52,856 nucleotides of DNA from Oscillospiraceae bacterium (GTDB taxonomy: Bacteria > Bacillota > Clostridia > Oscillospirales > Oscillospiraceae), in assembly GCA_017444195.1 (NCBI GenBank), contig JAFSXE010000107.1, forward strand, positions 1 to 52,856, read 5' to 3'. The notes beneath the pieces were generated by a model. It did no database searches. It was not told the DNA's origin and was given only the letters and a program-made list of their open reading frames with translations. The position numbers were made by a program, and so were the translations under genes. Shown here in pieces: positions 1,729 to 47,275 of this stretch. The number at the start of each line of letters is the position of its first letter. The first letter of the stretch is position 1.

Positions 1729-1742
1729 AAGGAGGCTCAGCC

Positions 1743-2390: not shown

Positions 2391-2404
2391 TCCGTGCTTT
2401 CTTC
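2370..2404. terminator. Bidirectional intrinsic terminator hairpin between convergent genes
   Basis: 16-bp perfect stem gaagaaagcacggatc / gatccgtgctttcttc with a 3-nt loop. The stop codon of the + strand gene lies in the loop region. Confidence 0.6.
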
Positions 2405-3103: not shown

Positions 3104-3106
3104 GAA

Positions 3107-4195: not shown

Positions 4196-4205
4196 AACGC
4201 GCCTC

Positions 4206-5270: not shown

Positions 5271-5274
5271 CGTA

Positions 5275-7239: not shown

Positions 7240-7259
7240 TTTCAGCCTTCTTTCCTCTT

Positions 7260-16090: not shown

Positions 16091-16095
16091 AAACG

Positions 16096-16138
16096 AAAAA
16101 ACAGGCAATCCGATTTGCGTCGGATTGCCTGTTTTTTT
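16096..16138. terminator. Bidirectional intrinsic terminator
   Basis: 13-bp stem acaggcaatccga / tcggattgcctgt flanked by an A run and a T run, between convergent genes. Confidence 0.75.
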
Positions 16139-16150
16139 GCTGTAATAGGC

Positions 16151-17773
16151 TTATTTAACGGTAAAAGTAGTCGTCCACGTCTTCGTGGTTTTTATATCTG
16201 TCGCCACGACTTTCATCGTGTACGTTCCCCTGCTCAATCTGTTGAACACAAGATTGTTATTCAGATTTGCATACCGAACGTCCATCGACGTAGCATTCGG
16301 CGTATCCGTCGTGGACATCACCGTCTGTCCGGACGCATTGATGATTGCGCCGGTAACTTTGGTGATGTTGTAATTCGACGTCACCGAGCCGCGCAGACCG
16401 TAACTGCTGCCATAGTTGATCGAAGTGGGATAACTGGTCATGTTGATCGACAGCGTAGATGCCGCAGATGCAGGAGCAGGCGTCGGAGCAGGCGCAGCAG
16501 AAGCGGACGGATTGCCAACGGTAAAACTCGCCGTCCACGTTTTGCTGGCTTTGGTGTCCGTCGCTACGATCTTCAGCGTGTACGTGCCTGCCTTCAAATT
16601 GCCAAACACGAGATTGTTATTCAGATTTGCATACCGAACGTCCATCGACGTAGCATTCGGCGTATCTGTCGTTGACATCACCGTCTGACCCGATGCGTTA
16701 ATGATTGCGCCGGTGACTTTGGTGATATTATAGTTCGAAGTCACCGAGCCGCGCAAGCCGTAGCTGCCGCCGACGTTGAGCGAGGTCGGATAGCTGGTTA
16801 TATTAATCGTCAGCGTGGAGTCAATATTCTTAACCAGCGACAAACGATCTGCGGAAATATAACCCGATACGCCGTTGTAGGTCACGTGATAGAACGTGTT
16901 GCCCAAGCCGTTCACAACCGCACCGGCCACGGAGACCTGCGTTCCTTTCGGTAGCGTTCCCGACGTCATATTCCCAGCCGCAGCATACGGCGCGGCTTTG
17001 ATGTTGGACGCTGCCGTGGTCTGATAGACGCCCGGCTTATCCAGCGGCGCATTGTCGTTCTGATTCGGTTTGAACTCGCCGCAATTCGTGCACAGACCGG
17101 AAGCGTTATAGGTGTGGGTATGTGAATTCAGTGCATAATCGCCATTGATTATTGTCGAATTATTTACAATCCAACTCCAATATTGGCTGTTTTTTGCTCC
17201 CTTACTACCTGTCCATGCACTACTAAAACGTACATTTTTTAACGCCGCGGGGTTGTCCATGTAATACTCGAAGGTCTTTCCGCGAATTGCCGAAAGATAT
17301 CCCGTATTTGTGTTTGCAATATCAAAGTGCAAATGAGCGCCATAAGACTCACCCGTGTTGCCCATTTCGCCAATTTGGGTATTGGTATCAATATACTTAC
17401 CAATCAATGAGCTTCCTATTGTACCATTACGAAAGTGCATATATCGAGAATAGTATTTTGTTCCTTCGATATTATGCTCCATTTTTACGTAATAACCCAT
17501 TGATTTTTCATAGCCAGCATCGGTAACCGTACCTGCGGCAACAGGGTAAACTGCTTCACCCTCCCATCCGGGATTGCCAATATCAATGCCGTTGTGCGTT
17601 GACCCACTCCTGTAATAATCAATAGATGTAATGTAATAGATGCGGTCGGAATGAATTGGCCATGCCGGTTTAAAGGTTTCTGAGGCACTGGTAAACACAG
17701 TAATTCCCACCAAAAGTTGCATAGATAACACAACGGTCAAAATGGCAGAAAGAACTTTTTTAATTCTTAACAT
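16151..17773 (-). CDS. Secreted M23-family (LytM-type) metallopeptidase with an SH3-like region and two tandem ~100-aa C-terminal domains
   Basis: HNGIDIG and GAHLHFDI M23 motifs. Signal peptide MLRIKKVLSAILTVVLSMQLLVG. GGAGG 5 nt before the ATG at 17773. Confidence 0.85.
   Translation of the reverse strand: MLRIKKVLSAILTVVLSMQLLVGITVFTSASETFKPAWPIHSDRIYYITSIDYYRSGSTHNGIDIGNPGWEGEAVYPVAAGTVTDAGYEKSMGYYVKMEHNIEGTKYYSRYMHFRNGTIGSSLIGKYIDTNTQIGEMGNTGESYGAHLHFDIANTNTGYLSAIRGKTFEYYMDNPAALKNVRFSSAWTGSKGAKNSQYWSWIVNNSTIINGDYALNSHTHTYNASGLCTNCGEFKPNQNDNAPLDKPGVYQTTAASNIKAAPYAAAGNMTSGTLPKGTQVSVAGAVVNGLGNTFYHVTYNGVSGYISADRLSLVKNIDSTLTINITSYPTSLNVGGSYGLRGSVTSNYNITKVTGAIINASGQTVMSTTDTPNATSMDVRYANLNNNLVFGNLKAGTYTLKIVATDTKASKTWTASFTVGNPSASAAPAPTPAPASAASTLSINMTSYPTSINYGSSYGLRGSVTSNYNITKVTGAIINASGQTVMSTTDTPNATSMDVRYANLNNNLVFNRLSRGTYTMKVVATDIKTTKTWTTTFTVK
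16157..16815 (-). repeat. Tandem duplication with an exact 360-bp period inside the M23 peptidase gene
   Basis: 16254-16316 and 16614-16676 are identical by eye. The flanking parts differ mainly at synonymous positions. An Ala/Pro linker separates the copies. Confidence 0.85.
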
Positions 17774-17845
17774 AACAACCTCCGATAGAGCGAGTCTCAG
17801 TTCTATTTGGCTTGCTTGCGGCAATTATGATCTGCATGGCACCAA

Positions 17846-18646
17846 TCAATAGCGCACAAGTTTGCCCTGATCACATGTGCCCTCAAAAACATCCGAACCA
17901 TCAACAGCAACAACAAACCGCGTCAAAGTAGTTGTATGATCACCCATATTGTCAATGTAACGGAATTGATAATATGTCTTTCCATCAACTGTATATTTGC
18001 CATCACAAATCAGGTTGTTCGTGTTAACACCCGAAAACTCACCGATTGCTTCCTTGGCTTTATCCTCACTTATTTCAACGTTGGATGTCGCACCTTGACT
18101 CTGGACGCTGCTATACGCTTGCGCCCAAACTTCGCCTTCATCTTCCTTGCTGACCGTCACGCTGACAGTTCTGCTTGCAGCATCCCAATTGACTTTGCCG
18201 CCATAGCATTTTTCAATGAAAGCACGAAGCGGAAGATATGTCGTTCCGTTGTAGGTTGTTGCCGGAACATCGATCGTACCCGCATCAATGGTCTTGCCAT
18301 CCGACCAACCAGCATGAATCTTCGTATCATTAAGATAGAGCCAAACGGAAAAATCGCCACCTTGCGCAGCAAAGAATTCCTTATAAGGCGCCACGCCTTC
18401 TTTCGCAAAGCCCACTTCCGGGAACTCCTGAATGCTGCTCAGTTTTGAAAAAAGCGGCTGCTCGGGGACCATGCAGCGGTTGTTGATAATGACCGGTTTT
18501 GCAGTACTGCCCGCAAACAAATCCGTTCCATTCAGCAAAACCTTAACATTCTCGGAGTAATTCTTGACCTCCACCGCGGAGACTGAAACGCCGACAAGCA
18601 GCGCGACAGCCAAAAGAAATGCCGAAATTTTTGTAATGTGTTTCAT
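17846..18646 (-). CDS. Secreted copper-amine-oxidase N-terminal (stalk) domain protein with a PepSY-like C-terminus
   Basis: Signal peptide MKHITKISAFLLAVALLVGVSVSA. VKVLLNG...PVIINNRCMVP...GTTYLPLRAFIE...KVNWDAASRTVSV pattern. Confidence 0.7.
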   Translation of the reverse strand: MKHITKISAFLLAVALLVGVSVSAVEVKNYSENVKVLLNGTDLFAGSTAKPVIINNRCMVPEQPLFSKLSSIQEFPEVGFAKEGVAPYKEFFAAQGGDFSVWLYLNDTKIHAGWSDGKTIDAGTIDVPATTYNGTTYLPLRAFIEKCYGGKVNWDAASRTVSVTVSKEDEGEVWAQAYSSVQSQGATSNVEISEDKAKEAIGEFSGVNTNNLICDGKYTVDGKTYYQFRYIDNMGDHTTTLTRFVVAVDGSDVFEGTCDQGKLVRY

Positions 18647-18714
18647 TTTTTCGATTCCTTTCTGTTTTTGTTTGCTTGATAAAAGCACAACCACTATAAC
18701 AAACTGCAATTATT

Positions 18715-18744
18715 TTGTCAATTATTTTTTATTCATTTTAGAAT
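18715..18744 (+). promoter_or_regulatory. Candidate promoter (TTGTCA, 18 nt, TAGAAT) for the RHH gene
   Basis: Read directly in the AT-rich divergent intergenic region. Confidence 0.4.
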
Positions 18745-18807
18745 ACAAATTGTGTTCTTATGGCAAAATAGATTAAGCAGTAAAATAGTATTAGTGAGGT
18801 AATGAAA

Positions 18808-19011
18808 ATGAAAGAAAAATCGAACAAGTTCATCATCACCCCAAAAACAGAGCGTTCCGTTACGCTGACCGTGCGGCTTGATGCGGAGTTGAACGATTAC
18901 ATCGAAGAAATCGCACGAAAAAGCGGCCGGTCGCGAAATGAGCTGATCAACAAGGCATTGCAATTCGCGTTTGACAACCTTGAATTAAGCACGGATGAAG
19001 CCGAACAGTAA
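18808..19011 (+). CDS. Ribbon-helix-helix (CopG/Arc-like) DNA-binding protein
   Basis: VTLTVRLDAELNDYIEEIARKSGRSRNELINKALQFAF is a classic RHH fold signature. GAGGT 7 nt before the ATG at 18808. Confidence 0.7.
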   Translation: MKEKSNKFIITPKTERSVTLTVRLDAELNDYIEEIARKSGRSRNELINKALQFAFDNLELSTDEAEQ

Positions 19012-19045
19012 ACCCACCGACAGAACGTATGTCGGTGGGTTTATT
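19010..19045. terminator. Hairpin terminator between convergent genes
   Basis: 11-bp stem aacccaccgac / gtcggtgggtt followed by T-rich sequence. Confidence 0.6.
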
Positions 19046-19420
19046 TCAATTTTTGAATTGCGTATAGTTTCGTTGATTGGGCTTTGATGATAAAAGGGAG
19101 AGAATCTGCTTTTTTCTGCGTCTTGCATAGTCCAGCATTTGCGCTGCGCCGCCCCAATCATGTTCTACGCATGCAACTACAATGTCCGCAAGATCGACCA
19201 TATACTCGTTTCGCTTTAAAATGGCAAACCGCCGCGGGACGCTTTCCAATGGCGGATATAGTGTATAATCATAGAGTTTCACATCATATCTTCGGTCAAG
19301 ATACGGCACGACCAACACCGCTTCAATATCCGAATAGCGTTGCTTCATTTTATGAACACTTTTCGCCGCCAAGATATCAAACCGCCCATAACCACCCAGT
19401 AAAAAAGCGGTTTGCTCCAT
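19046..19420 (-). CDS. SLOG-fold DUF1273 (YoqJ-like) protein, N-terminally short
   Basis: FLLGGYGRFDILAA glycine loop, RNEYMVDLADIVVA and WGGAAQMLDYARRRKKQI resemble DUF1273/SLOG. The usual N-terminal extension is absent. Confidence 0.55.
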   Translation of the reverse strand: MEQTAFLLGGYGRFDILAAKSVHKMKQRYSDIEAVLVVPYLDRRYDVKLYDYTLYPPLESVPRRFAILKRNEYMVDLADIVVACVEHDWGGAAQMLDYARRRKKQILSLLSSKPNQRNYTQFKN

Positions 19421-19485
19421 TTTGAATTAGAGTTTCAATTCTGGCGGTGAAGCGTATGGAACAAAAGATACAGCGTGATCGAAAC

Positions 19486-19863
19486 ATGGGCAGCAATTTG
19501 CGTAGACTGCGAAAAGAAGCCCATCTTTCCCAAGAGAAGATTTGCGCGGAACTGCAACGCCGTGGATGCGATATCGGGCGCACGACGTATGAAAAATATG
19601 AATCCGATGAACTGAATATACGTGCGAGCGTACTGATCGCCCTGCGAAAGATTTATAACTGTACCTATGATGACTTTTTCCAGGGTTTGGATCAGATACA
19701 CAGCATAAAAGAACGGAGCAATCCAAAAGGATTGCTCCGTTCTTTTATGCTGTGTATGAATCACTATGTGTTTGCTTTTGCCGTGTTGATCGACGCAATC
19801 AGCAGTTTTTTAATCTCAAGGCAGTCTGAAAGAAGCGATTTTCCCTCTGCTTCCGTAAGGTAG
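19486..19863 (+). CDS. XRE-family helix-turn-helix regulator. Alternative starts are 19447 (GTG) and 19456 (ATG).
   Basis: LRRLRKEAHLSQEKICAEL...TTYEKYESD is an HTH_XRE pattern. The ORF runs through a 29-bp hairpin and overlaps the convergent gene by 100 nt. Confidence 0.6.
   Translation: MGSNLRRLRKEAHLSQEKICAELQRRGCDIGRTTYEKYESDELNIRASVLIALRKIYNCTYDDFFQGLDQIHSIKERSNPKGLLRSFMLCMNHYVFAFAVLIDAISSFLISRQSERSDFPSASVR
19696..19757. other. 29-bp perfect-stem hairpin with a 4-nt loop, between or overlapping convergent genes
   Basis: atacacagcataaaagaacggagcaatcc aaaa ggattgctccgttcttttatgctgtgtat. Confidence 0.8.
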
Positions 19864-20120
19864 TCCGACATCTGCAACAAACGCAGCCAGTATTCCGTTT
19901 CGGCTGTCTCTTTTAACGATATTTGCAACTTGGCGAGAAAATCCGCCTTGCTGCTCCCATAGATTGCTTCATTCGCATTGGCACCAATGGATGTCGCGCT
20001 GCGGATGATTTGTTTGGATATGATCGTCTCATGTTTTTCTTTTGTGAGATAGCGATGCAATTTAATAATCCTTGCGGCAAAACGGAGCGATTTCTCTAGT
20101 AGTATGCTATCCTGTGCCAT
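19764..20120 (-). CDS. Four-helix-bundle protein (23S rRNA intervening-sequence protein / Avd-like family)
   Basis: IRSATSIGANANEA...KADFLAKLQISLKETAETEYWLRLL is the family signature. GGAGAAGG SD upstream. Confidence 0.8.
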   Translation of the reverse strand: MAQDSILLEKSLRFAARIIKLHRYLTKEKHETIISKQIIRSATSIGANANEAIYGSSKADFLAKLQISLKETAETEYWLRLLQMSDYLTEAEGKSLLSDCLEIKKLLIASINTAKANT

Positions 20121-20264
20121 ATCCTTCTCCTCTCATCAGATAATAGATAAGAGATAACAGAGAATAGTGAATAGTACAAAAGCGCCGATGCGGTGCGTTT
20201 CGTATCTATTCTCTATTATCTATTCTCCATTATCTCTTATCTTAGCCGCGTTAGCGGCGCTTTT

Positions 20265-20351
20265 TGGTGCCGGTGGCCGGACTCGAACCGGCACGCCATC
20301 GCTGGCGGTGGATTTTGAGTCCACTACGTCTACCAATTCCATCACACCGGC
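20265..20351 (-). tRNA. tRNA-Leu (anticodon CAA), class II with a long variable arm and encoded CCA
   Basis: Hand-folded. Acceptor GCCGGTG/CACCGGC. Anticodon stem GTGGA/TCCAC with loop CTCAAAA. T arm GCCGG TTCGAGT CCGGC. Confidence 0.9.
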
Positions 20352-20356
20352 ATAAT

Positions 20357-20654
20357 TCCGATCCGCGGCAAGACTGCACACCCGTATTCGAATGAGACAA
20401 CAGCCCGTTACCGAAGCGCTCGGCTCGGAGACGGCTTGCTCACGGCACACGAAAAGGGTCGCTTAATGCTGCTCGGTTCCCCGCCTGACATGGTTCGCGG
20501 TTTCTCGTTGCGTAAGACCGGCTCCTCAACGCTTCGCACTTCGGGCAGACGACCACGGTCGCACCCTCCTGCGGGAATTCATCCCTGCTAAGCGGATTGC
20601 AGGTCACAAGGCACCGCTGGCTCCCCGACTAGTGCAGCCTTGCCGCGGATCGGA
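20357..20654 (-). ncRNA. ffs: Signal recognition particle RNA, long Bacillus type with Alu domain
   Basis: The minus strand reads GGGGAGCCAGCGGUGCCUUGUGACCUGCAAUCCGCUUAGCAGGG and GAACCAUGUCAGGCGGGGAACCGAGCAGCAUUAAG, closely matching remembered B. subtilis scRNA blocks. The terminal helix is ccgatccgcggcaag / cttgccgcggatcgg. Ends are approximate. Confidence 0.85.
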
Positions 20655-33058: not shown

Positions 33059-35131
33059 TCAGTTCCACGTCTCCGCGCCGTCTTCTTTGGTGAAGTCGTG
33101 CGCGTTGCTTGCCTCGACCACGTCGAAGTAGTACCACTTCGACGCATCCTGCAAATCGGTGAACTGCTCGATCTTATCGGGGTTGGCATGGACATGCGCT
33201 TCATCGGCGGTGCGGCCGATCATGCGGTTCACGATAGCCGCAACTTCCGCACGCGTGATGTTGCCCGTCGGGACAAACGTTCCGTCCGCGTAGCCATCGA
33301 CCCAGCCGTATGCCGCAGCCGTTGCGATATTGCCGTATGCCCAGTAGGTTTCGGGCACGTCGGTGAATTCCGCTTTGCCCTCAGCCGTGTTTGCCAGGCG
33401 CGTTGCAATCGTAGCAAACTCCGCACGGGTGATGCTGCGCGCCGGCTCGAAGGTATCGCCGTCAACGCCCTTGATCACGCCGATGTTCGCCAGCGCATTG
33501 ACCGCCTCGGCATACCATGCGCCGTTCGGCACGTCCGCAAACGATGCGGTGATCGTCACGTCCTTGTTCTTCAGCAGACGGTAGAAGATCATTGCAACTT
33601 CCGCGCGCGTGATATTGCCCTGCGGCTTCACGGTGCCGTCCGTATAACCGGAAATATAGGCGCCGTGCACGTCGCAGATCAGCCAATCCGCAACGCCGGT
33701 TTCTTCCGCCGACAGGCGCACCTTGCTGAACGTTGCCTTGACCGTTACCGCGCTGTTGGGCATGGTGATCGTGCGGCTGCTGCCCGATTTGGACACGCTG
33801 ATTTCCTTGCCGTTTGCATCGGTTACGACGATGTTCTTCAACTGATAGCCGTCCTCCGGCGTGACCGTGAAGGTGACCGTTGCGCCGGCGAACGCCGTGC
33901 TCTTATCCGCCTTCACGCTGCCGTGTGCGGCGCTCGATACCGTAACGGGATACTGCGCTGCGACGCTGCCGCCGCCACCGCCGCCGGTGTGGGAAGCCGC
34001 TTTCAGGCAGAAGCCGTCGCCTGCCGCGGCAGAAACAGCCGTCTTGGTATCCACCGTTTCGCCGGCGAGATCATGCCACGTGCCGGCATACGCTTTCAAA
34101 ACGTTGAATTCGTTTTTCACGGACCATGCCGCATCCGCTTTCGTTGTGCTTGCGGCATGATTCGTGTAGAACGTCACGTTGGCAAAGTCGATCGTTCCGG
34201 GCAGCGCATAGCCCAGGACGTTGGTATGATCCTCGGCTGCGTCGCTTGAACGGAACACAACCGTGTCATCCAGGAAGAGTTTGTAGTAGTCTTCTTCGCT
34301 GACCGTCCAAGTGAAGCTCACGCTGTCAAACACGTCGGGGTCATCCGCGTCCGCATTTTGGACGCCTGCCGCAGCGCCGTCGCGCCACAGGTTGATGCTG
34401 ACCGTGACCGCCGTGCCGGGCAGCAGTTTCGCAGGATCAAAGAACGCCGCGTCCGCTTCGGTATCGACAGCAACGCTGTTGAACTGCGCCATGCTGTTCG
34501 CGCCGAGTTTCACCTGCTTGCTCACCGCCGCGCCGTTGTTGATTGCGCCGTCCGCATCGGGCGCCTGATACTTCAGGGTGATGTCACCGGCAGTATCCGC
34601 ACCGTAGGCAGCGGTGTCAAACAGCGTCTTGTAGTTGACATAGACGGTATCTTCCGCGCCGTCGATCAGGGTGCTGTCGGTCGCGCTCGTGATCGTCTTT
34701 TCAACGGAGAGATTCGAGGCATACGCCGTTTCGGGCGCGACGACCGTCTCATGATCGCCCAGCAGCTTGCCGCCGAAGGGCTCGATGACCGGCACGACCG
34801 CGATGGCGAAGTTCTCGCCCAGCGTGCATTCGCCGGTGCGCAGCTCAGAGCGGAAGGTGCTGCCGCCGACCTGATCGTTCGCCGCAGCAAGCGTGCCGGC
34901 GTCTTCGCCGTTCACCTTGTGCAGGCTCAGCCACAGCGGATTTTCGATGTGATTCATACCGGTTTCGGCATCGGTCTGCGTGTTAAACGAGCCGATGACG
35001 TTCTCGGTATCCGCGAGCAGCGCCGCAAGCGTCGGCACCGCCGCCGTCGCGTTATCGGTCGTCTTGTAGTCCGCGCCGCCGACCTTGACGGCAACGATCT
35101 TCACGTCCGCCAAATAACTGTTCTGCGGCAC
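33059..35131 (-). CDS. C-terminal segment of the giant surface protein: Ig-like and InlB-B-type repeats plus three SLH cell-wall-anchor repeats. No signal peptide or SD of its own.
   Basis: SLH repeats (FADVPNGAWYAEAVNAL..., FTDVPETYWAYGNIATA...). The ORF is in the same frame as 35144-40795, separated from it only by TAG at 35144-35146. Confidence 0.8.
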   Translation of the reverse strand: MPQNSYLADVKIVAVKVGGADYKTTDNATAAVPTLAALLADTENVIGSFNTQTDAETGMNHIENPLWLSLHKVNGEDAGTLAAANDQVGGSTFRSELRTGECTLGENFAIAVVPVIEPFGGKLLGDHETVVAPETAYASNLSVEKTITSATDSTLIDGAEDTVYVNYKTLFDTAAYGADTAGDITLKYQAPDADGAINNGAAVSKQVKLGANSMAQFNSVAVDTEADAAFFDPAKLLPGTAVTVSINLWRDGAAAGVQNADADDPDVFDSVSFTWTVSEEDYYKLFLDDTVVFRSSDAAEDHTNVLGYALPGTIDFANVTFYTNHAASTTKADAAWSVKNEFNVLKAYAGTWHDLAGETVDTKTAVSAAAGDGFCLKAASHTGGGGGGSVAAQYPVTVSSAAHGSVKADKSTAFAGATVTFTVTPEDGYQLKNIVVTDANGKEISVSKSGSSRTITMPNSAVTVKATFSKVRLSAEETGVADWLICDVHGAYISGYTDGTVKPQGNITRAEVAMIFYRLLKNKDVTITASFADVPNGAWYAEAVNALANIGVIKGVDGDTFEPARSITRAEFATIATRLANTAEGKAEFTDVPETYWAYGNIATAAAYGWVDGYADGTFVPTGNITRAEVAAIVNRMIGRTADEAHVHANPDKIEQFTDLQDASKWYYFDVVEASNAHDFTKEDGAETWN

Positions 35132-35143
35132 CGTGAACTCAAA

Positions 35144-38100
35144 CTATGCGCTGTCGCCGTTGGGATAGACGGCAATATACTGATAGCTTTCCGCTTCGTC
35201 CGCCGTCTTGACAACGCCGCCGGAACGGTTGACAAACACAGAAGGAGCAGGACGGGCGTTGAGCTGATCGAGCGGCAGGAGCAGATCGTAGTTGTTGCCG
35301 TTGCCCTTGACGCGGAAGCGCATCACGTGCTGCCAGCTTTCGGCGCTCGTGGTCTTGGTGTTCTGCGCGCCGCCCTGCACGCAGACGTTGAGGTTTGCAT
35401 CGGCAGTATCCTCGGAAACCAGTTTGAAGTTCGGGAAGCTGCCGATCGAAACGTTCATCGCCGGGAAGTTCGCCGGGTTCGTGCTGCCGATCGAACGCTG
35501 GGCAACGTGCGTTACCGCGCCGGTCGTGCCGTCGATCTCCAGCGTCTTGTCGGTCATATACTGATCGTACTTGATCGAGGTGTTGATCGCATAGGTCACC
35601 GCGTAGTCGTATTCCTCCAGAGACTTCGCGTAGCTATCCGTGCCGGCGTCGTCCGCCTCAACCAGTTCGGTCAGCGCCATATCGAGCGCGGTATAGAAGC
35701 CGTTCTCGGCTTTTGCCGTCAGCAGATAGGCTTTTGCATGGATGCCGAATGCCTCGTGCATCGAGGTCAGATCATAGACCGTGAGCACGCCGAACGGAGC
35801 GTGCGTGAAGTGCATCTGCGCCACGTCCACGCTGCCGGTCGCCGAAGCGATACCGTCCGCTTCGCCGTTGCCGTCCACAATTTTGTAGTTCAGCGCGGCA
35901 ACCTTGTCGCCTGCGGCTGCAATGGTGTCGTCCGTCTTCAGCAGACGCGCCGCCGCAACGGCAATGCTCTTGTTCTCGCCCTTGTTCTTATCGGCATAAT
36001 CGCCCGCAAGTTCCAGATGCATGGCGTTCTCGCCGGTCGGATCAAGATAGTTATACAGCGCCGTGCCCGCTTTCTTCGTGAACTGGTCGGGCGTTGCCGG
36101 CGCAGCCGTCGTCAGCGCGGTAATGTACTTCGCAGCGGCAGTCACGTCGCCGCTTTCAACCGTCTGGGCAACGAGCGCGGTCGTGCCGTCGTAAATCTTA
36201 TCGAAGTCGCCGGTGTCTTTCAGCGTCACTTCGCGCGGCTCCACGTCGAGATAGAAGCGCACGCCGGTAACGACCCACTGGAATTCTTCTTCGCCGCTCC
36301 ACGCAGATGCGCGTCCTGCAACGCTGGTCTCGGTGGTGTAGTACAGACCGTAGTAATCCACCGTCACCGTGTAGTAATCCACGCCGTAGAATTCACAGGC
36401 GGGCAGGACGTCGTAAATCCGCTCCGTGAGTTCGGAGATCTTGTTGGCAACCGTGTTCTTCGCCGTCGTATCCGTAAACTTGACGGCAGCAACTTCGGTA
36501 TCGCCCGCCATGACGGTAATCACGTAGAGGTCGCCCTTATAGGCGTCGCCGTCAATGAGGTCCGCCGTATACGCGCTGTTCGGCGCAGCCGTTACTTTGT
36601 TGCCGTAAGGTGTATCGCCGGAGATCTTATCGCCCTTCACCACGCGCCAGCCGAGGTCGTTGCGCGTCAGTTTGCCGCTGATCTTGAGATCCTCGGCATA
36701 GACGGAACGGATGGTGTTTTCCTCGCTCTTTTTCGCGTAGTTCGGACCGGGGTAGCCGGAGGTGACCGGCTCGCTCGCGAAGGCTGCCGACGCAAAGGTT
36801 GCAGACTTGCCGGCGTCGGTATTGACGTCCGCCTGCGTGCCCACGTACTTCACCGTGATATCCATTGCGCCGGGGATCACGTTGACGCCGCTCGGAGCAG
36901 GATCGGGATCGACTTCCTGATTGCGGTAGGCAATCGCGCCGTTTGCGCCTTTATAATAGGTATTCTGCACGTCGCCGTCCGACGTCTTCTGGTCCACCGC
37001 GCTCTGTCCGTCGTTCTGGCAGAGGTAGTTGTTCATGTTCTTCGAGCCGTAAGCAACGGTCGCACGGTCGAAGTCCGTATACTGATCCTGCGCGCCCGTG
37101 AGATCGCCGAAGAGGTTGAACTCCCACTGCAGATCGCGCTGCAGCGGCGTGGCGGCATTGATCATCAGGTGTTCATCGTTGCCCCACTTCTCGCCGTGTC
37201 CGGCGTCGAAGGAGAACGCGCCGTAGACCTGTTCGTCATTCTGACCTTCCACAAAACGGGTGAACTTGTGGTCCTGCACCTTGGTCGGCTCATAGACCGT
37301 GTCCGTCGCCTGGTCGATGGCGAGATCCGCCTGCTCGATCAAAACGTAATAGGTATTGTACTTGTAGGCAGCGGTATACTTGCCGTCCGCGCCGTACTGC
37401 CAATCCAAAACGCGCTCGTAGACCGTATAGAGACCGGCGTTCTTGACCTGGATCTTGTCAAAGTCGGCGTAGTTGCCGAGCCATGCGCTGTACGCAGTCG
37501 CGTCCGCATATGCCGCACCGCCGAAAACCTTGCCGGCATCGGCAAAATAGGTCGTGCGATCCGCGCTGTCCGCACCGCCGAGCAGCCAGTTGTTGGCGTT
37601 GGCGTACGGCGTGGTCAGCGCAAACTCCGCCGGGGCGGCGGAGCCGTCCTTGTTCGTGACCTTGTTATCCTTGAAGGTATGATACGGCGTGTAAAGCACC
37701 GCATAGGTGGCGTTCCAATCGTCGTTGAAATCAAAAAGCGCCGTCAGTTTATGGGTCTTATTATCGTAGGTGGTAAACTTGACGGTCTTGACGTCCTTAT
37801 AGTCGCCTGCCGCGCCGACAAACTGCGTGTTCTTCTGTTCGCCGGCAACGTTCAGCTCCGTGGTGATCGGATCGGAAACCGAGCCCGGATCATAGGAAAC
37901 CAGAACGTTGTTGCCGCCGGCAACGATTGCGCCGTCCGCATTGGTCTGATTCGTGAGCGAAACGGTATTGATCTTGTCCTGCGGAACGTCGATCGCCGCC
38001 CAGTCGGTATCCGTATCGCCGCCGTAATTCGTCATCTTATCGGAGGCAGTCTTCGTATAGTACGCTTTGAGCGTCAGCGTGTTGAGAACGTCGCCTTCCG

Positions 38101-40795
38101 CGCCGGTCAGCGTCGTGCCGACGGCAAAGACGTTATCCGAAACCGTCGTATCGGCATTGACGCCGCGCAGGTAATACTGCACCACGCTCTTTGCCGTGCT
38201 CACGCTGCTTGCGCCGTTCGTGCCGGCTGCGGTGGCAGCCGATGCGGAAGCGTTGTGGTTCTTGCTGGTCGTTGCCGAGTTGCCGTTGCCGCCCTTGGCG
38301 CCGCCGTTGCCGCCCTTGCCGCCTGCACCGACGATCGCGCCGCCGAAGCCGCCCTGGCCGCCGGAGCCGCCTGCGCCGCCGCCGCCGAACGCGGAGCATT
38401 TCTTCGTCTTGAAGGGCCAGCGCTTAAACGAGTCCGTTTTCTTCTGATTCGCGCCGTTCGCGCCGTTTTCGCCGTTCGCGCCGTTTTCGCCGCCCTTGCT
38501 GCCGTCCAGCGAGACGTTGCCGAGCAGGTTCACCGTGCCGGCTTCTGCCGGCGTGTTGTTGTTCGTCTTAACCGTTGTGGTATTGGAGGCCGTAACGCCG
38601 TTCGTGCCGTTGGTGCCGATACCGGCGCCTGCACCGCCGCCGCCGTTGCCGCCTGCTCCGCCCTTGCCGCCGCGCGCACTGGTATGCGTGCCGCCGAGGT
38701 AGCCGGCAAGACCGCTGCTGCAGGAGGCATAGGCATAGCCGTCCGTGCCCTTCTGACCGTCCGTGCCTGCCGCCGCATTGCCGCCAACGGCGTTGACCGC
38801 GCCGTCACCGACAAAGTAGATCGTAGCGTCCTTCGGCAGATAAATGCCCGCAAAGCCGCCGGTCATGCCGTTTGCCGCCTTGCCGGTCGCGCTGAGCGTA
38901 TGATCGTTGAGGTAGATATAGACCGTTGCGCCGTTTGCAATTCTCAAGCCGTTGCCGACGGCGCTGCCGTCAAACGCCGCATCGTCGGTCAGATAATACC
39001 GACCGGTGTACAGCGTGGAGCCGGCAGGATAATTCTCCGTATTGAGCAGCCGCCATGCCGTTGCCGTATCGGTCGGAATCTGCTCAAAGTCGGCGCTGAC
39101 CGTAACCGGGTAGTCCGGCATCACGAAGCCAGTGCCGAAATCATCGACGTATTCGACCGGATCGCTGCCGGTCTTGGTGACCGTAATGCCTTTAAGACCA
39201 TATCCTTCCGCCGGTGTCGGGTTGATCATCACGACGCTGCCCGGAGTCGCTTTTTCCGCTTCCGCACTATTGACGGTCACCGTGAACGTGCCGTTTTCGG
39301 CAGCCGATGCGGTGATTGCATATTGATCTTCGTTATACGTAACCGTGATCTTCACGTCGCCTGCCGGCATCGTAAAGGTGCGGGTATTGCCGGTGCCTTC
39401 CAGCGCAATGCCGGTGTCGCCGCATTTCGCGGTGATATCCGTCACCGTGTAGCCGTTATCCGGAAGAACTTCCACGGTGATCGGCGTCTGTCCTTCGTAT
39501 GCGCCGTCCGTTTCCGCCTCACCGACGGTGAAAATCACTTCGCCGTTCGGCGAATCCGCCGTCAGCTTATAGGGAGAAAGCGGAATCGTGACCGTTTCCG
39601 CCGGAGCCGTGCTGTATGTTACGATGAAACTGCGGTTGGATATGCCGATCGTTTCATTTTTTGGCGCATTGCCGTTGACTTTGAACGGCGTGACGCCCGA
39701 TTCAACGTGCCAGTTCGGGTCTGCCGCAAAGTTATATTCTTCGTCGGTATCGTTTTCAGCAGGAAGCGCGGTATCCTTCGCCGCATAATACGCCGTTACC
39801 GTCCACCCGGCAGTATTCACGACCGTGCCGGACGGCAGGGAGTCTTCCGTGATATGCGTATCCACCGAAATCAGTTTCGGCTCCCACACGTTCAGCGTAT
39901 AGGACGCGGTCTTGGTGGCATAGGCGTAGTTCGCGCCGTCCGTGACCGTTGCGGTGATGGTTGCGCTGCCCGCGCCCACGATCGTCACCTTGCCGTCGGA
40001 TGCAACCGTTGCAACGGCGGTGTCGGACGAGCCGTAGCTCACCGTGCCGTCGCTGCCGGCGGTTTTGGTCAGCGTGTTGGTGAACGCGCCGTCTTTGCCG
40101 AGGTACTTCTTCAAAGTTCCGGTTGCATAGCTGATGCTGCCGGCGGCTTTGTTGATCGTATAGGTCTTTGTCGTCGAACCGGAATAACCGCCCATACCTG
40201 CGACCGTAACGGTCTTGACGCCGGAATTGGTGCAATCCTCCGGATAGGTCAGCGTATAATCTGTATTCTCGGTAAGCGTATTGCTGCCGTCCGTGACCGT
40301 AACCGTCTGCTTATGCTCCGCGCCGTCGTAAGTCACGTCGGAAACGGAAATCGTGCAGTCCGTAATCGCCTTGGAAGCGCTTTCGACCTTAATATTGAAC
40401 GCATAGGTGGCTTTGTTGCTCGTGAACGCAGGCGCACCTGTGTAGGTGATTGTCGTGGTGCCCACGCCTTTGATGCACATGTGATGCCGAAATTCGCCGC
40501 TTCCCAACTCGACAACCGAGGTATTGGATGACGACGTATCGGTTCCGTCAACATAAGAAATCCCCTCATCAGCATAGGGACTTACAATGTTGATGCCATA
40601 ATCACTGCTTTCGCCCGTGCTGCCGAGCGGCAGCGTTACGCCCTCATAGAGCATCTTGTAGGTTGTCTCGGTGCTCTTTTTCACCTTGACGTTGTAGGTT
40701 GCCGCCGCCGCTGCCGGCGTTGCCACAGCGGGCAACAATCCGACGAGCATCGTCAACGCCAACAAAGTGCTGATGAGTCTCTTCATTTGTTTCAT
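35144..40795 (-). CDS. N-terminal 1,883-aa segment of the giant secreted surface protein (signal peptide, Big_2-like and InlB-B-type repeats, Gly-rich blocks)
   Basis: AGAGGAGGA SD 6 nt before the ATG at 40795. Signal peptide MKQMKRLISTLLALTMLVGLLPAVATPAAAA. TAVATVASDGKVTIVGAGSATITATV is Big_2-like. Confidence 0.85.
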   Translation of the reverse strand: MKQMKRLISTLLALTMLVGLLPAVATPAAAAATYNVKVKKSTETTYKMLYEGVTLPLGSTGESSDYGINIVSPYADEGISYVDGTDTSSSNTSVVELGSGEFRHHMCIKGVGTTTITYTGAPAFTSNKATYAFNIKVESASKAITDCTISVSDVTYDGAEHKQTVTVTDGSNTLTENTDYTLTYPEDCTNSGVKTVTVAGMGGYSGSTTKTYTINKAAGSISYATGTLKKYLGKDGAFTNTLTKTAGSDGTVSYGSSDTAVATVASDGKVTIVGAGSATITATVTDGANYAYATKTASYTLNVWEPKLISVDTHITEDSLPSGTVVNTAGWTVTAYYAAKDTALPAENDTDEEYNFAADPNWHVESGVTPFKVNGNAPKNETIGISNRSFIVTYSTAPAETVTIPLSPYKLTADSPNGEVIFTVGEAETDGAYEGQTPITVEVLPDNGYTVTDITAKCGDTGIALEGTGNTRTFTMPAGDVKITVTYNEDQYAITASAAENGTFTVTVNSAEAEKATPGSVVMINPTPAEGYGLKGITVTKTGSDPVEYVDDFGTGFVMPDYPVTVSADFEQIPTDTATAWRLLNTENYPAGSTLYTGRYYLTDDAAFDGSAVGNGLRIANGATVYIYLNDHTLSATGKAANGMTGGFAGIYLPKDATIYFVGDGAVNAVGGNAAAGTDGQKGTDGYAYASCSSGLAGYLGGTHTSARGGKGGAGGNGGGGAGAGIGTNGTNGVTASNTTTVKTNNNTPAEAGTVNLLGNVSLDGSKGGENGANGENGANGANQKKTDSFKRWPFKTKKCSAFGGGGAGGSGGQGGFGGAIVGAGGKGGNGGAKGGNGNSATTSKNHNASASAATAAGTNGASSVSTAKSVVQYYLRGVNADTTVSDNVFAVGTTLTGAEGDVLNTLTLKAYYTKTASDKMTNYGGDTDTDWAAIDVPQDKINTVSLTNQTNADGAIVAGGNNVLVSYDPGSVSDPITTELNVAGEQKNTQFVGAAGDYKDVKTVKFTTYDNKTHKLTALFDFNDDWNATYAVLYTPYHTFKDNKVTNKDGSAAPAEFALTTPYANANNWLLGGADSADRTTYFADAGKVFGGAAYADATAYSAWLGNYADFDKIQVKNAGLYTVYERVLDWQYGADGKYTAAYKYNTYYVLIEQADLAIDQATDTVYEPTKVQDHKFTRFVEGQNDEQVYGAFSFDAGHGEKWGNDEHLMINAATPLQRDLQWEFNLFGDLTGAQDQYTDFDRATVAYGSKNMNNYLCQNDGQSAVDQKTSDGDVQNTYYKGANGAIAYRNQEVDPDPAPSGVNVIPGAMDITVKYVGTQADVNTDAGKSATFASAAFASEPVTSGYPGPNYAKKSEENTIRSVYAEDLKISGKLTRNDLGWRVVKGDKISGDTPYGNKVTAAPNSAYTADLIDGDAYKGDLYVITVMAGDTEVAAVKFTDTTAKNTVANKISELTERIYDVLPACEFYGVDYYTVTVDYYGLYYTTETSVAGRASAWSGEEEFQWVVTGVRFYLDVEPREVTLKDTGDFDKIYDGTTALVAQTVESGDVTAAAKYITALTTAAPATPDQFTKKAGTALYNYLDPTGENAMHLELAGDYADKNKGENKSIAVAAARLLKTDDTIAAAGDKVAALNYKIVDGNGEADGIASATGSVDVAQMHFTHAPFGVLTVYDLTSMHEAFGIHAKAYLLTAKAENGFYTALDMALTELVEADDAGTDSYAKSLEEYDYAVTYAINTSIKYDQYMTDKTLEIDGTTGAVTHVAQRSIGSTNPANFPAMNVSIGSFPNFKLVSEDTADANLNVCVQGGAQNTKTTSAESWQHVMRFRVKGNGNNYDLLLPLDQLNARPAPSVFVNRSGGVVKTADEAESYQYIAVYPNGDSA

Positions 40796-40853
40796 AATTT
40801 GTCCTCCTCTGTTTTTAAGGTCGCCGCTTGGATACCGATAAACTTCCAATTAC

Positions 40854-40862
40854 ACTATAGCA
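40854..40862 (-). promoter_or_regulatory. Candidate extended -10 (TGCTATAGT) for the giant surface-protein gene
   Basis: Read on the minus strand about 55 nt upstream of the ATG. No good -35 element. Confidence 0.3.
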
Positions 40863-40886
40863 AGCCGAGCGCCACAAAAGTGCCAC

Positions 40887-40930
40887 AAAAAAGTCGAAAC
40901 ATGGGGAAAATCCCGTGTTTCGACTTTTTT
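40887..40930. terminator. Hairpin terminator between the response-regulator gene and the giant gene
   Basis: gtcgaaacatggg / cccgtgtttcgac stem (one G-U pair on the minus strand, a mismatch on the plus strand), flanked by an A run and a T run. Confidence 0.6.
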
Positions 40931-40932
40931 AT

Positions 40933-41697
40933 TCAGCCCTCTGTTCGGAACGTCAGCCAGGAATACTGCGCCATGTATTCGGCTCGGTATGCGCGGATCG
41001 CATCGGGGTTGTTGCGCTTGTATTCGTAGGCGTCGCAATCCACCTTGGCTACATCGATAAAACATTCGTTTCGGCGCTTGACGAACACGCCGCCTGCGCC
41101 AACCGCCTCCAGCGTGGTTTGAATATCGGCAATCAGGTTTCGCAGATAGGATTTATGATCCTCCGACCACAAAACGGCATTGAGTTCCCCTATGCTGATC
41201 GCCGCCCCTTCCCGATCAACAAGATAGGCAAACAATTCTTTCGATTTGCTGTATTGAAATTTCACCGGTACGCCGTTTGCAAAGACCTCGAAATTGCCGA
41301 AGCATTTGATTTGCAGCGGCTTGCCCGTTTTGATCTCAATGGGGTAACGCAGGTTTTCGATCTCCTCGCGTACTTTTTCCTCGCTGACCGGCTTGGTCAG
41401 ATAGCCGGAAGCGTGGATCGCATAGGCGCTTTGCGCGTAATGCTCGTAGGCGGTGATGAAAATGATATTGACCTTCGGGTTGCTCTCCTTCAGTTTTTTC
41501 GCCAACTGAATGCCGCCGATCACCGGCATCTCAATATCCAAAAAAGCAAGATCGACCTGCTCCCCGGCAGTTTCGGCAAGCGCCTGCACCGGATTGACAA
41601 AGCAGCGCAAAACAGCGTCCGCCGGCAGCACCTTTTGCACCGCGCTTTTTAAGCGGATCAGCTGCAATTCCTCATCATCGACCAATAATGCTCTCAT
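40933..41697 (-). CDS. Response regulator: REC domain fused to a SARP/BTAD-type winged-helix activator domain
   Basis: LLVDDE...DLAFLDIEMP REC motifs. C-terminal IKCFGNFEVFANGVPVKF...KELFAYLVDREG...LWSED pattern. Confidence 0.8.
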   Translation of the reverse strand: MRALLVDDEELQLIRLKSAVQKVLPADAVLRCFVNPVQALAETAGEQVDLAFLDIEMPVIGGIQLAKKLKESNPKVNIIFITAYEHYAQSAYAIHASGYLTKPVSEEKVREEIENLRYPIEIKTGKPLQIKCFGNFEVFANGVPVKFQYSKSKELFAYLVDREGAAISIGELNAVLWSEDHKSYLRNLIADIQTTLEAVGAGGVFVKRRNECFIDVAKVDCDAYEYKRNNPDAIRAYRAEYMAQYSWLTFRTEG

Positions 41698-42968
41698 ACG
41701 CTTCCCTCACGATGAAACAAAACCGTAACGTGCGTGCCTTTGCCGGGCTCGCTGCGGACGGTCATCTCTCCGCCGCAGATTTTTTCCACGCGGTATTTGA
41801 TATTGTTTATGCCGAAATGCCTGTTGGCGTCAAAATCGACGTCTTCCATGCGGAAGCCCACGCCGTCGTCCAAAACTTCCACAACATAGGCGTCCTCGGT
41901 TTGACGGGTTGTAAGCACAAGCCGTCCGCCTTCCAGTTTTTTCAAAATCCCATGCTTGATCGCATTTTCCACGATGGGCTGAATGCTGAGCGGCGGAACA
42001 TAAAAATCCGTCGTCTGAATATCATACACGACGTCCACGCGGTTGCCAAACCGCAATTTTTCCAAAGCGACAAAAGACTTGACGTGCTTTAATTCATCCT
42101 CGAACGGAATGAGTCTTGTTTCCGTTAAGGCAGAAAGGTTATGCCGCAAGAATTCGGTGAAATAATCCAGCGCCGTCTGCGCTTTTTCCGCGTCAATCGG
42201 AATCAGCGTGGAAATGGAGGACAGCACGTTATAAACAAAGTGCGGCTGAATTTGCGAAAGCATGATCCGAAGTTGGGCTTCTCTGTTCTTTTCCTCCTCC
42301 TGCTCAAGGACGATATTTTTCTGCACGTTCAAAAACAGGAAGAGGATCTCGATTGCGAGAATAATGGACGCGTAGGCGATGGCATATCCTTTGTAATGAT
42401 TCTGAAGCAGGATCGCAATCAGCGGCAAAAAGCAATAAATGCCAAACGCCGTCTTTTCCCTCGCAGTCAGTTTTTTATCGGTGACGGCGACAAGGAAAAC
42501 AGCGGCAAGCATCAAAAAATGATACCCCTGTGACAGGATCATCATCTTGCTGCGATGGTACGCGCCGCCGCTTGCCGTAAAGAACATCCCCGTAAAAATA
42601 TTGAGAATGTCTAACGCAACAAAAAACGAAAGCAGCACAAGCGCAAACGCAGACAGCGCCTTTGCCTTTTTACCCTCGATCTTCATATATTTGCACGCAT
42701 AACGAAACAGGAAGAACGCTTCCAGATTATTCATTATGTAGAAAGCCGTATAAAAACCCAGAATAAAGGCGTCGCCGGTGTAGTGTAGTTTGATAAGCGA
42801 AAACGTCAGATAGATCGCAAAATGCACGGCGGTAAAAAGAACGAACTGCAACAGCGCCGTTTCGTCGTTTCTTCTTTTCTTTTTCAGGAGAATATTCACG
42901 CAGTGGATCGCAAGTATCAGAATTCCGATGATGCAGACCGTGATATTAAAAACAACGTTTTCACTCAT
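41694..42968 (-). CDS. LytS/YehU-type sensor histidine kinase (multi-TM sensor, His_kinase PF06580-like, HATPase)
   Basis: QIQPHFVYNVLSSI H-box and IVENAIKHG N-box. 4-nt overlap with the regulator gene. Confidence 0.85.
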   Translation of the reverse strand: MSENVVFNITVCIIGILILAIHCVNILLKKKRRNDETALLQFVLFTAVHFAIYLTFSLIKLHYTGDAFILGFYTAFYIMNNLEAFFLFRYACKYMKIEGKKAKALSAFALVLLSFFVALDILNIFTGMFFTASGGAYHRSKMMILSQGYHFLMLAAVFLVAVTDKKLTAREKTAFGIYCFLPLIAILLQNHYKGYAIAYASIILAIEILFLFLNVQKNIVLEQEEEKNREAQLRIMLSQIQPHFVYNVLSSISTLIPIDAEKAQTALDYFTEFLRHNLSALTETRLIPFEDELKHVKSFVALEKLRFGNRVDVVYDIQTTDFYVPPLSIQPIVENAIKHGILKKLEGGRLVLTTRQTEDAYVVEVLDDGVGFRMEDVDFDANRHFGINNIKYRVEKICGGEMTVRSEPGKGTHVTVLFHREGSV

Positions 42969-43105
42969 GCCCGTTCCATCCTGTGATCGATGATTTTGAT
43001 GCGATTTTTGCCGTTCGGCGCAAAAATCCTCTTATTGAGAAGTATACCATCTCAATTCCGGTTTCGCAAGACGAAAAGCCGTCTTCGAAAGTACGGCACC
43101 AAAAG

Positions 43106-43143
43106 ATAAAAAGGAACCTGTCGTAACACGACAGGTTCCTTTT
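43106..43143 (-). terminator. Intrinsic terminator after the NUDIX gene
   Basis: 11-bp stem ggaacctgtcg / cgacaggttcc with flanking A and T runs. Confidence 0.7.
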
Positions 43144-43614
43144 TTATCGAATGACCTTGCCGTCCAATTCGGCAAACTTCAAGCGATCTTCTTTGTCATA
43201 AGAAAGCGTCATGCGAAAAAACGGCGCGTCCGTTTCCAAAAGGGAGAGAAACAGTTTGTCCCCTTCCCACAGCGCCAGTTCCGTCACCTTCGGAATCGGC
43301 ACCCATTCAAGCGTGCCTTCGTCGCAGTCGGCAAGTGCGCCTTCAAATCCGTCGGCGGTATAAAGGTACATTTCCTCGTCGTCCCACCGATCCGAAAGAA
43401 ACGTGACGATTCCGCGCAGCGCGTAGTCCGTCAGGCGCAGTCCCGTTTCCTCGCGCACCTCGCGCAGCAGACAGTCCTCCGCCGTTTCGTTCGGCTCAAA
43501 CTTGCCGCCGACGCCGATCCACTTGTCGTGGTTGAGATCTTTCTCTTTTTTTACGCGGTGGAGCATCAGATAGCAGCCATCCCTGCGGATATAGCAAAGC
43601 GTCGTCTTTTTCAT
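43144..43614 (-). CDS. NUDIX hydrolase (MutT-like)
   Basis: Nudix box GGKFEPNETAEDCLLREVREETGL. ATGA overlap with the upstream gene. Confidence 0.85.
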   Translation of the reverse strand: MKKTTLCYIRRDGCYLMLHRVKKEKDLNHDKWIGVGGKFEPNETAEDCLLREVREETGLRLTDYALRGIVTFLSDRWDDEEMYLYTADGFEGALADCDEGTLEWVPIPKVTELALWEGDKLFLSLLETDAPFFRMTLSYDKEDRLKFAELDGKVIR

Positions 43615-45901: not shown

Positions 45902-46084
45902 GTTTACAAGTATACCTGTGCCCTGTCTACTCCACCTTCATAGCCGGGCACGGTAAACAAAAAGGAGGATAAACCGCCGACTTGCGGTGCGGCATTGTGG
46001 AGACATGCCGTATTCGGACGCGACAAAGCCGCGCGTTCGGGAGCCGTGTTTTTGCGGAGGCAGACACGGCAGAGTCAGAGCATT

Positions 46085-46996
46085 ATGGCAAGAGTATTCT
46101 TAAACAACATCAAGAAGGTCTATCCGTATTCGGACAGCGAGCAGAAAAAGCGTGCCAAGAAGGCCAAAAAGGATGGCATGCCGGTCAAGAAGACCAATCT
46201 GCAGATCACCGAGGAAGGCGTCGTCGCCGTCCAGCAGTTCAGCCTGGAGATCAAGGACAAAGAGTTCATCGTTCTCGTCGGACCGTCCGGCTGCGGCAAG
46301 TCCACGACGCTGCGCATGATCGCCGGTCTGGAAGAGATTTCCGACGGCGAACTGTGGATCGGCGACAAACTCTGCAACGACATTCCCCCGAAGGATCGCG
46401 ACATTGCGATGGTCTTCCAGAACTACGCGCTGTATCCCCATATGACCGTTTATGATAACCTCGCGTTCTCGCTGAAGCTGCGCAAGGCGCCGAAGGACGA
46501 GATCGACCGCCGCGTCAAGGAAGCCGCGCAGATCCTCGACATCACCGAGTTCCTCGACCGTAAGCCGAAGGCGCTTTCCGGCGGTCAGCGTCAGCGTGTT
46601 GCCATCGGCCGTGCGATCGTCCGCGATCCGCAGGTCTTCCTGATGGACGAACCACTTTCCAACCTGGACGCCAAGCTCCGCAACCAGATGCGCGCCGAGC
46701 TGATCAAACTCCGCAAAAAGATCGACACCACGTTTATCTACGTTACGCATGACCAGGTCGAAGCCATGACGCTCGGTGACCGCATCGTTATCATGCGCGA
46801 CGGCTTCATCCAGCAGGTCGGCACGCCGCAGGAAGTTTTCTCGCATCCTGCCAACCTGTTCGTCGCCGGCTTTATCGGCACGCCGCAGATGAACTTCTTC
46901 GAGGACAGCAAACTCGTCTGCGAAAACGGCACGTACTACGTCGAGATCTGCGGCGTCAAGTTTGAACTGGACGCCGACCGTCAGACAATTCTCTAA
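46085..46996 (+). pseudogene. MsmX/MalK/UgpC-type sugar ABC transporter ATPase, N-terminal part, ending at an in-frame TAA
   Basis: GPSGCGKST Walker A, LSGGQRQR signature, and [10 protein letters not shown] Walker B. The regulatory C-terminal domain is missing from this ORF. Confidence 0.85.
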
Positions 46997-47020
46997 GCAG
47001 CCGGAACGCCGGATCAGACC

Positions 47021-47275
47021 GTGACCGCAGGCATCCGCCCCGTCCATATCGATCTTGCACAGCAGGGTATCCCCGCCGAGATCGAAGTCTGCGAGATGAT
47101 GGGCTCCGAAATGCATCTGCACGCCACCGTGAACGGCAAGGACATCATCATCGTCGTGCCGACGACGGACTACAAGCCCGATCAGTTCGCCGGCGGCAAC
47201 GTCCCCGTCAACTTCACGTTCGACACGAGCCTGCTGCATCTGTTCAATCCGGAAACCGGCAAGAACCTGTTCTGA
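47021..47275 (+). pseudogene. C-terminal (TOBE/MalK regulatory domain) part of the same ABC ATPase, in the same frame
   Basis: GIRPVHI...EVCEMMGSEMHLH...HLFNPETGKNL is the usual MsmX C-terminus. 46997-47020 is open in the same frame. Confidence 0.8.

Follow-up and report, generated by a model that had tools for sequence, protein, structure and literature searches.

Organization of the locus

The window, that is the whole 52,856-bp stretch of DNA analysed here, is a chromosomal contig of 45-61% G+C from a spore-forming member of the Clostridia, and the genes it carries include spoVT, yabP, yabQ, holB, dnaG, sigA, uvrB, metG, pgk and tpiA. On its minus strand, between a histidine kinase/response regulator pair on the upstream side and spoVT on the downstream side, lie two long ORFs. 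The first (35144-40849) encodes 1,901 aa when counted from its first TTG (40849) and 1,883 aa when counted from the ATG at 40795, and its stop is a TAG at 35146-35144. The second (33059-35131) encodes 690 aa from a GTG and ends with a TGA at 33061-33059. Beyond the TAG the frame of the first ORF continues for 694 further codons into three SLH repeats, so that the junction can be read in a single frame as GGC GAC AGC GCA TAG TTT GAG TTC ACG GTG, and the codons sum to 1,883 + 1 + 694 = 2,578 with one internal stop (Table 1). The preliminary description of this DNA had placed the two ORFs in one frame, at these positions and separated by this TAG, and both the ORF listing and the junction codons agree with it; its other statements on the sequence were likewise confirmed. 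The sequence context of the TAG is GGCGACAGCGCATAGTTTGAGTTC, the junction motif with the stop-position codon written as NNN is TAYCCNAAYGGNGAYAGCGCANNNTTTGAGTTCACGGTG, and a readthrough peptide across the junction would read ...NGDSA-x-FEFTVPQ... Signs of recombination were also seen at this surface-protein locus, together with modular indels.

Table 1. Features of the interrupted surface-protein gene and their positions in the window
Feature	Position	Strand	Description	Basis
Whole interrupted gene, giant SLH-anchored surface protein	33059..40795	-	2,578 codons, one internal TAG	Full-length colinearity with the single ORFs of L001 (5516-14005) and L002 (2515-10989), ~77% aa identity
Shine-Dalgarno AGAGGAGG	40803..40810	-	7 nt before ATG 40795	Read from sequence
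Signal-peptide-like N-terminus MKQMKRLISTLLALTMLVGLLPAVATPAAAAA	40700..40795	-	Codons 1-32	Judged by eye
Part 5' of the stop	35147..40795	-	1,883 codons	Pfam, NCBIfam, PDB, motif reading
In-frame TAG	35144..35146	-	Codon 1,884	Sense codon in homologues
Part 3' of the stop	33062..35143	-	694 codons, intact, probably untranslated; remainder of conserved beta-rich domain, further conserved sequence, one Flg_new_2, SLH anchor	
GTG opening the 690-aa ORF	35129..35131	-	Without Shine-Dalgarno	Aligned to ATC/ATT
Site of absent in-frame 212-codon module	34069..34070	-		Alignment with homologues
Three SLH repeats, wall anchor	33232..33694	-	Codons ~2,368-2,530, approximate boundaries	Pfam, PDB, motifs

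Homologues are open across the stop position

Ten homologues with 31-77% identity were assembled (L001, L002, L003, L004, L005/P0002 and P0003-P0007), five of which have DNA loci (L001-L005), three of these having gene order in common with the window. A scan with one genome per species gave two loci from goat-rumen MAGs, L001 from Clostridia bacterium RGIG3492 and L002 from Oscillospiraceae bacterium RGIG3479. Each is a single ORF (2,829 and 2,824 aa, respectively; Table 1) that matches the window protein over its full length and equally well on both sides of the TAG. P0002 to P0007, of 1,252-3,261 aa, came from 1.84 billion representative proteins searched exhaustively with HMMER, and their identity to the window over the junction segment is 31-65% (31-47% for P0003-P0007). 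Each of these proteins aligned across the junction; the best-scoring stretch itself spans it in P0004-P0007, and P0003, which aligned in two stretches, spans it within 360-1173. The metagenome contig L003, the sole locus obtained from a profile-based metagenome scan, is open across the TAG site, as are L004 and L005, the contig of P0002. In all, the reading frame runs uninterrupted across the region in 10/10 homologues. The gene order histidine kinase-response regulator-gene-spoVT-holB-PSP1-aminotransferase is common to the window, L002 and L005, with synteny between the window and L005 extending over 19 kb, and L001 is syntenic on the histidine kinase-response regulator side only.

The preliminary description had proposed to look in orthologous loci for a sense codon where the window has TAG, and all ten homologues have one. 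At the DNA level the codon is GAA in L001, GAG in L002 and L004, and CTG in L003 and L005. Of the ten residues at this position six are E, two L, one S and one V; no homologue has a stop. The adjacent residue is an invariant F, within the motif G-D-x-A-E-F-x-F-T-[IV]-P-Q. Since the GAG found at the homologous site in L002 and L004 is one base from TAG, the simplest and most parsimonious origin of the stop would be a change from GAG to TAG, in which the coding-strand G at window position 35146 became T. Since the homologues are colinear with the window across the stop over the whole length, the in-frame arrangement of the two ORFs is more than chance, and on the strength of these alignments the two ORFs are one gene, not two.

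The JGI metagenomes contained no match to a degenerate DNA pattern built around the junction. Word-indexed protein searches returned either the 690-aa ORF of the window itself or nothing; since the same searches missed P0002, which is 69% identical, their negative on conspecific alleles carries no information. The 690-aa ORF is listed in NCBI nr as protein P0001, where it is alone in its 90% cluster, and the N-terminal ORF was not found in the protein collection under either start.

The part downstream of the stop lacks a usable start

The two parts differ in their start signals in the way that had been described before. The 1,883-aa ORF has a strong Shine-Dalgarno and, as judged by eye, a signal peptide (Table 1), and by the same judgement a leader-like N-terminus is also kept in L001, L002 and P0002. 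On the other side of the TAG, none of the nine in-frame start codons within 211 codons has a Shine-Dalgarno-like motif, and a leader-like N-terminus was looked for in the translation of this part and none was seen. The GTG at 35131 aligns with Ile codons (ATC or ATT) in all five DNA loci, L001, L002, L003, L004 and L005, at a position that is Ile/Val inside a conserved motif. Because the relatives have Ile at this position and no Shine-Dalgarno precedes it, the GTG is, by sequence comparison, no real start, and the part 3' of the TAG has no usable start codon.

Domain architecture and the position of the stop

Pfam places a Big_2 domain at aa 237-292 of the N-terminal part, together with two Flg_new_2 (divergent InlB B-repeat) stretches, the best at aa 425-490. 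A PDB match to the intimin Ig was also obtained for the part 5' of the TAG, and a Gly-rich segment (aa ~640-880) was recognized there by motif reading. In the C-terminal part a further Flg_new_2 was found (E 9e-14, position 33952-33719), and repeats of the InlB-B type are therefore present in both halves, as had been noted in the preliminary description. The C-terminal part also holds three stretches of SLH (PF00395, E 4e-32), for which a PDB match to the SLH domain of Bacillus anthracis Sap was obtained (E 5e-15). SLH repeats are the usual non-covalent tie of a protein to the cell wall, and the three tandem repeats that characterize an SLH protein are present. No csaB-like gene was seen within the 52.9-kb window. 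The NCBIfam search of the protein added nothing specific beyond Pfam, and ~1,000 aa of the passenger had no match in the Pfam, NCBIfam or PDB sequence searches.

As the gene is written, the leader and the SLH repeats lie on opposite sides of the TAG and do not belong to one polypeptide. In the intact L001, L002 and P0002 they do, with the leader again judged by eye. The 216 aa around the TAG were modelled with AlphaFold2 from an 8-row alignment (mean pLDDT 69.8, pTM 0.70), and the model has one beta-rich domain at residues 18-190. The stop corresponds to model residue 66, between the strands at 52-58 and 68-84, where pLDDT is ~83-85. The TAG is thus predicted to lie inside a folded domain and not in a linker, and a break at such a place speaks against two functional genes. 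When the model of the junction domain was compared with the PDB by Foldseek, nothing better than E 0.05 was returned, with TM below 0.3.

The window also lacks an in-frame module of 212 codons that is present in L001, L002, L003, P0003 and P0005. This gap was considered as a second lesion, or a sign of decay, and was rejected as such, since the same module is missing from P0002, which is intact and syntenic. From the comparison with P0002, the gap is best described as modular length variation, not decay.

These results bear on whether the locus has undergone a true gene fission, such that the N-terminal protein is secreted and the SLH protein is translated on its own. The public annotation of the 690-aa ORF as a protein (P0001) would be expected under such a model. 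However, the downstream ORF has neither a Shine-Dalgarno nor a signal peptide, its GTG is an Ile codon in the relatives, the split is predicted to fall within a folded domain, and all homologues are fused. An SLH protein without a leader would moreover stay in the cytoplasm. The sole apparent precedent was P0008 (693 aa), which seemed to be a separate gene for the C-terminal part, with its start 15 aa before the junction. It was rejected as a gene-calling artefact, since its contig is L004, in which a 230-base run of N lies inside a continuous ORF (100-4962). Orthologues with two genes, in which the SLH part had a start and a leader of its own, would have spoken for fission, and the outcome was the opposite. 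We regard fission as having almost no probability.

TAG is an ordinary stop in the window

TAG terminates 7 of 44 ORFs that were selected in the window with a composition heuristic, the interrupted gene itself being one of the 7. One of the TAG-ending ORFs (20220-20450) overlaps a tRNA-Leu and is probably not a gene. TAG also ends holB, femAB and the SDR (short-chain dehydrogenase) gene, in the last of which the Pfam match reaches position 235 of 236. From its use in these genes, TAG is a genuine normal terminator within the window, and reassignment of TAG in the genetic code was rejected on this ground. The only tRNA in the 52.9-kb window is tRNA-Leu(CAA), and neither a suppressor tRNA nor pylTSBCD was found in it.

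It could be argued that the stop is programmed to be recoded, by UAG readthrough, a suppressor tRNA or pyrrolysine, such that the cell makes the protein in two forms, one short and soluble and the other long and anchored. The frame is indeed preserved across the TAG, and the part 3' of it, itself intact, still seems to be under selection. However, the homologues have E, L, S or V in place of the stop, so that there is nothing conserved to program, TAG ends other ORFs of the window, some of them at natural family ends, and no suppressor tRNA or pyl gene occurs within the window. In addition, the site is predicted to be in the middle of a domain. Programmed readthrough, which had been raised before, does not fit a TAG that is not conserved and that serves elsewhere as a normal stop, and we consider it very improbable. 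A low level of natural UAG readthrough is possible.

A reversible on/off switch of surface display has also been suggested for this locus. This is a gene for a variable surface protein and shows modular indels and signs of recombination, and phase variation is frequent in genes of its kind. However, by sequence reading there is no homopolymer, short tandem repeat or inverted repeat around the TAG, and thus neither a repeat tract nor an invertible element at the site, and a point nonsense change would revert only at the rate of base substitution. When the gene was scanned for promoters and terminators, nothing exceeded the shuffled controls, and the outcome was at chance level. It is therefore highly doubtful that the TAG represents a phase-variable switch.

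Age and reality of the nonsense change

The branch dN/dS of the window was estimated by a three-taxon Nei-Gojobori comparison with L001 and L002, with bootstrap 95% confidence intervals. It was 0.19 (CI 0.15-0.26) 5' of the TAG and 0.31-0.34 (CI 0.21-0.54) 3' of it; the 3' value falls within the range that is reached by some segments 5' of the TAG (0.33-0.37). The codons 3' of the TAG still carry the signature of purifying selection. The higher dN/dS on this side could reflect a short period of relaxed selection or mere regional variation and does not allow precise dating. The 694 codons downstream of the TAG contain no further stop or frameshift. Since ~2.4% of random substitutions would create a stop in these codons, the neutral time since the lesion would be less than ~0.06 substitutions per site (95%), and the dS of the window branch is ~0.27. 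The undamaged state of the 694 codons, together with the purifying selection on them, means that the change is recent, polymorphic, or not real.

The last two of these would apply if the TAG were absent from the DNA or a minority allele, that is, a consensus, base-call or assembly error or the variant of one strain, with the real gene carrying GAG and being intact. An undamaged and selected downstream part is what would be expected if there were no lesion. The window is the complete contig of a draft assembly, and since the two closest genome matches are goat-rumen MAGs, its source may be a MAG too. G-to-T is also a known class of oxidative-damage artefact in Illumina libraries. Against an error, substitution errors are rare in short-read consensus sequences, and none of the other genes examined in the window seems to be broken. 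In the Pfam scan of the 41 other ORFs of the window, 38 had a family match, nearly all over the full profile length, and no split or truncated gene was seen among the 41, which suggests that the assembly is not full of errors. A gene of 7.7 kb is also a large mutational target, and young nonsense alleles are common in the long surface-protein genes of real genomes, such as inlA (PMC5131979). An artefactual or minority TAG thus seems unlikely, but deserves to be taken seriously.

Discussion

We propose that the two ORFs represent one surface-protein gene in which a single change, GAG to TAG, is a recent nonsense mutation that removes the SLH anchor. We consider this explanation, which is ordinary and involves no new mechanism, to be likely. 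The preliminary description had put forward one gene cut by a single TAG, with its anchor lost and its anchor part not made, and the continuity of all ten homologues supports this at the level of sequence. Among the four causes that it listed, a recent nonsense mutation fits best.

The intact product would be a protein of ~2,580 aa with a signal peptide, Ig-like and InlB-B-type repeats, a large conserved region and three SLH repeats at the C-terminus. In the window, translation would start at 40795 and the leader would direct export, but ribosomes would be expected to halt at the UAG. After removal of the leader, an SLH-free protein of ~1,850 aa and roughly 195 kDa, ending in half a domain, would be released, and this truncated product would probably not be displayed on the cell but shed or degraded. 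The last 2.1 kb of the gene would be transcribed yet untranslated, and any product restarted downstream would be leaderless and so kept in the cytoplasm. The allele may then be of the loss-of-display type, or a young pseudogene, at a fast-evolving and recombining surface-protein locus.

It is also conceivable, though rather improbable in our view, that the shed allele is kept in the population. The ~195 kDa soluble giant adhesin would then serve in escape from phage or host binding, or as a decoy, beside intact alleles, at a locus whose 5' half is also exchanged between species by recombination. In a rarer version of this model, low-level readthrough of the UAG may set a fixed ratio of shed to anchored protein.

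The nonsense mutation that we propose has a close parallel in the premature-stop (PMSC) alleles of inlA in Listeria monocytogenes, in which the wall anchor is lost and the truncated internalin is secreted (PMC5131979; see also its reference 8, Nightingale et al. 2005). In both cases a point nonsense change lies upstream of a C-terminal anchoring module in a large, repeat-rich surface protein, with secretion in place of display, which for the protein described here would follow from its sequence. The protein described here also has InlB-B-type (Flg_new_2) repeats. Unlike in inlA, the anchor here is of the non-covalent SLH type and not sortase/LPXTG, the protein is ~3x larger, and the allele is a single observation known from the sequence of one genome. 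The combination of a signal peptide and a triple SLH module is shared with SLH proteins of the Firmicutes such as Sap and EA1 of Bacillus anthracis. However, the SLH module is N-terminal in Sap and here C-terminal, after a passenger of ~2,400 aa, and unlike that of Sap/EA1 it is, as written, cut off from the exported part.

The locus likewise resembles young bacterial pseudogenes in having one lesion with the rest intact, a dN/dS far below 1, and orthologues that are intact and syntenic. Unlike in such pseudogenes, the upstream 73% may still be made and exported, and the locus may therefore represent a truncation allele and not a dead gene. In terms of annotation, the public 690-aa "SLH domain protein" P0001 is a fragment and not an independent gene, and a single merged gene, with its internal stop flagged, should replace the two ORFs.

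The gene belongs to an uncharacterised family of giant Clostridia proteins of 2,200-3,300 aa, most of which end in SLH repeats and whose conserved core of ~1,000 aa has no sequence match to known families. The phenomenon itself is ordinary and opens no new mechanism. Young nonsense alleles that cost the protein its wall anchor are familiar, and frequent, in genes for large surface adhesins, and the present case would be one more of them.

Results and Discussion

The giant gene of the window (33059-40795, minus strand) encodes an SLH-anchored surface protein and is interrupted by a single in-frame TAG at 35144-35146. The stretch encoded upstream of the TAG (the N part) contains a low-complexity segment rich in glycine, which follows the conserved block 'YYLTDD...GNGLRIANGATVYIYLNDHTLSATG'. 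The segment is seen again in P0003-P0005, which are distant homologues, close to their N-terminal ends. The segment had no match among Pfam families or PDB sequences.

Public annotation of this locus looks inconsistent, since NCBI nr lists as a protein the 690-aa ORF 3' of the TAG (P0001, 33059-35131) but the upstream ORF of 1,883 or 1,901 aa was not found in the protein collection with either start. A gene-calling artefact concerns the contig L004 (GCA_963626895.1, CAVFZG010000015.1), in which a scaffold gap (run of N) at 2541-2770 lies within a homologous giant gene and caused the gene caller to output a 693-aa 'protein', P0008. As a candidate for an independent gene encoding the SLH part, P0008 was rejected as a mimic produced by the gap, and it is a trap for comparative annotation.

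Features located in the window
Feature	Position	Strand	Remarks
tRNA-Leu(CAA)	20265-20351		adjoins low-G+C stretch
SRP RNA	20374-20637		adjoins low-G+C stretch
Absent 212-codon in-frame module, gap site	34069/34070, codon ~2,242	-	comparison with homologues
Glycine-rich low-complexity segment, GGKGGAGGNGGGGAGAGIGTNG...	~38150-38880; aa ~640-880 of N part	-
malK-I RNA motif	45911-46090	+	full-length Rfam match, 132 bits

Elsewhere in the window, the ORF provisionally picked at 46100-47239, on the strand opposite the malK-I motif, has a GC1 of 0.81 and no match in Pfam. It is probably spurious, and the true gene probably lies on the plus strand downstream of the motif. The stretch at 16000-20000 has a G+C content of 0.45-0.47, compared with 0.50-0.61 elsewhere in the window, and encodes an M23 peptidase/SH3 protein, a Cu_amine_oxidN1-domain protein and a 23S-rRNA-IVS-family protein; the stretch is possibly an island with tRNA-Leu(CAA) as its insertion site.

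The 212-codon module lacking from the giant gene was found in the loci L001 and L002 (goat-rumen MAGs) and L003 (a metagenome contig) and in the proteins P0003 and P0005, and the edges of the gap show TGGTAT / TGGCAT microhomology. Decay was rejected as the cause, since the intact homologue P0002 lacks the same module; judged by this comparison, its absence is modular length variation within the giant-protein family.

Nucleotide comparison with L005, the syntenic contig encoding P0002, revealed mosaic identity (window ~37250-43400, L005 ~2700-9300). The housekeeping flanks are 71-88% identical. Identity is mostly 94-100% across the histidine kinase, the response regulator and the giant gene's 5' ~3.5 kb, with a local decrease to 85-92% around the N-terminal indel, and then falls to 52-77% over the 3' 4 kb of the gene. 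This pattern suggests that ~6 kb was recently exchanged by recombination between two species-level lineages.
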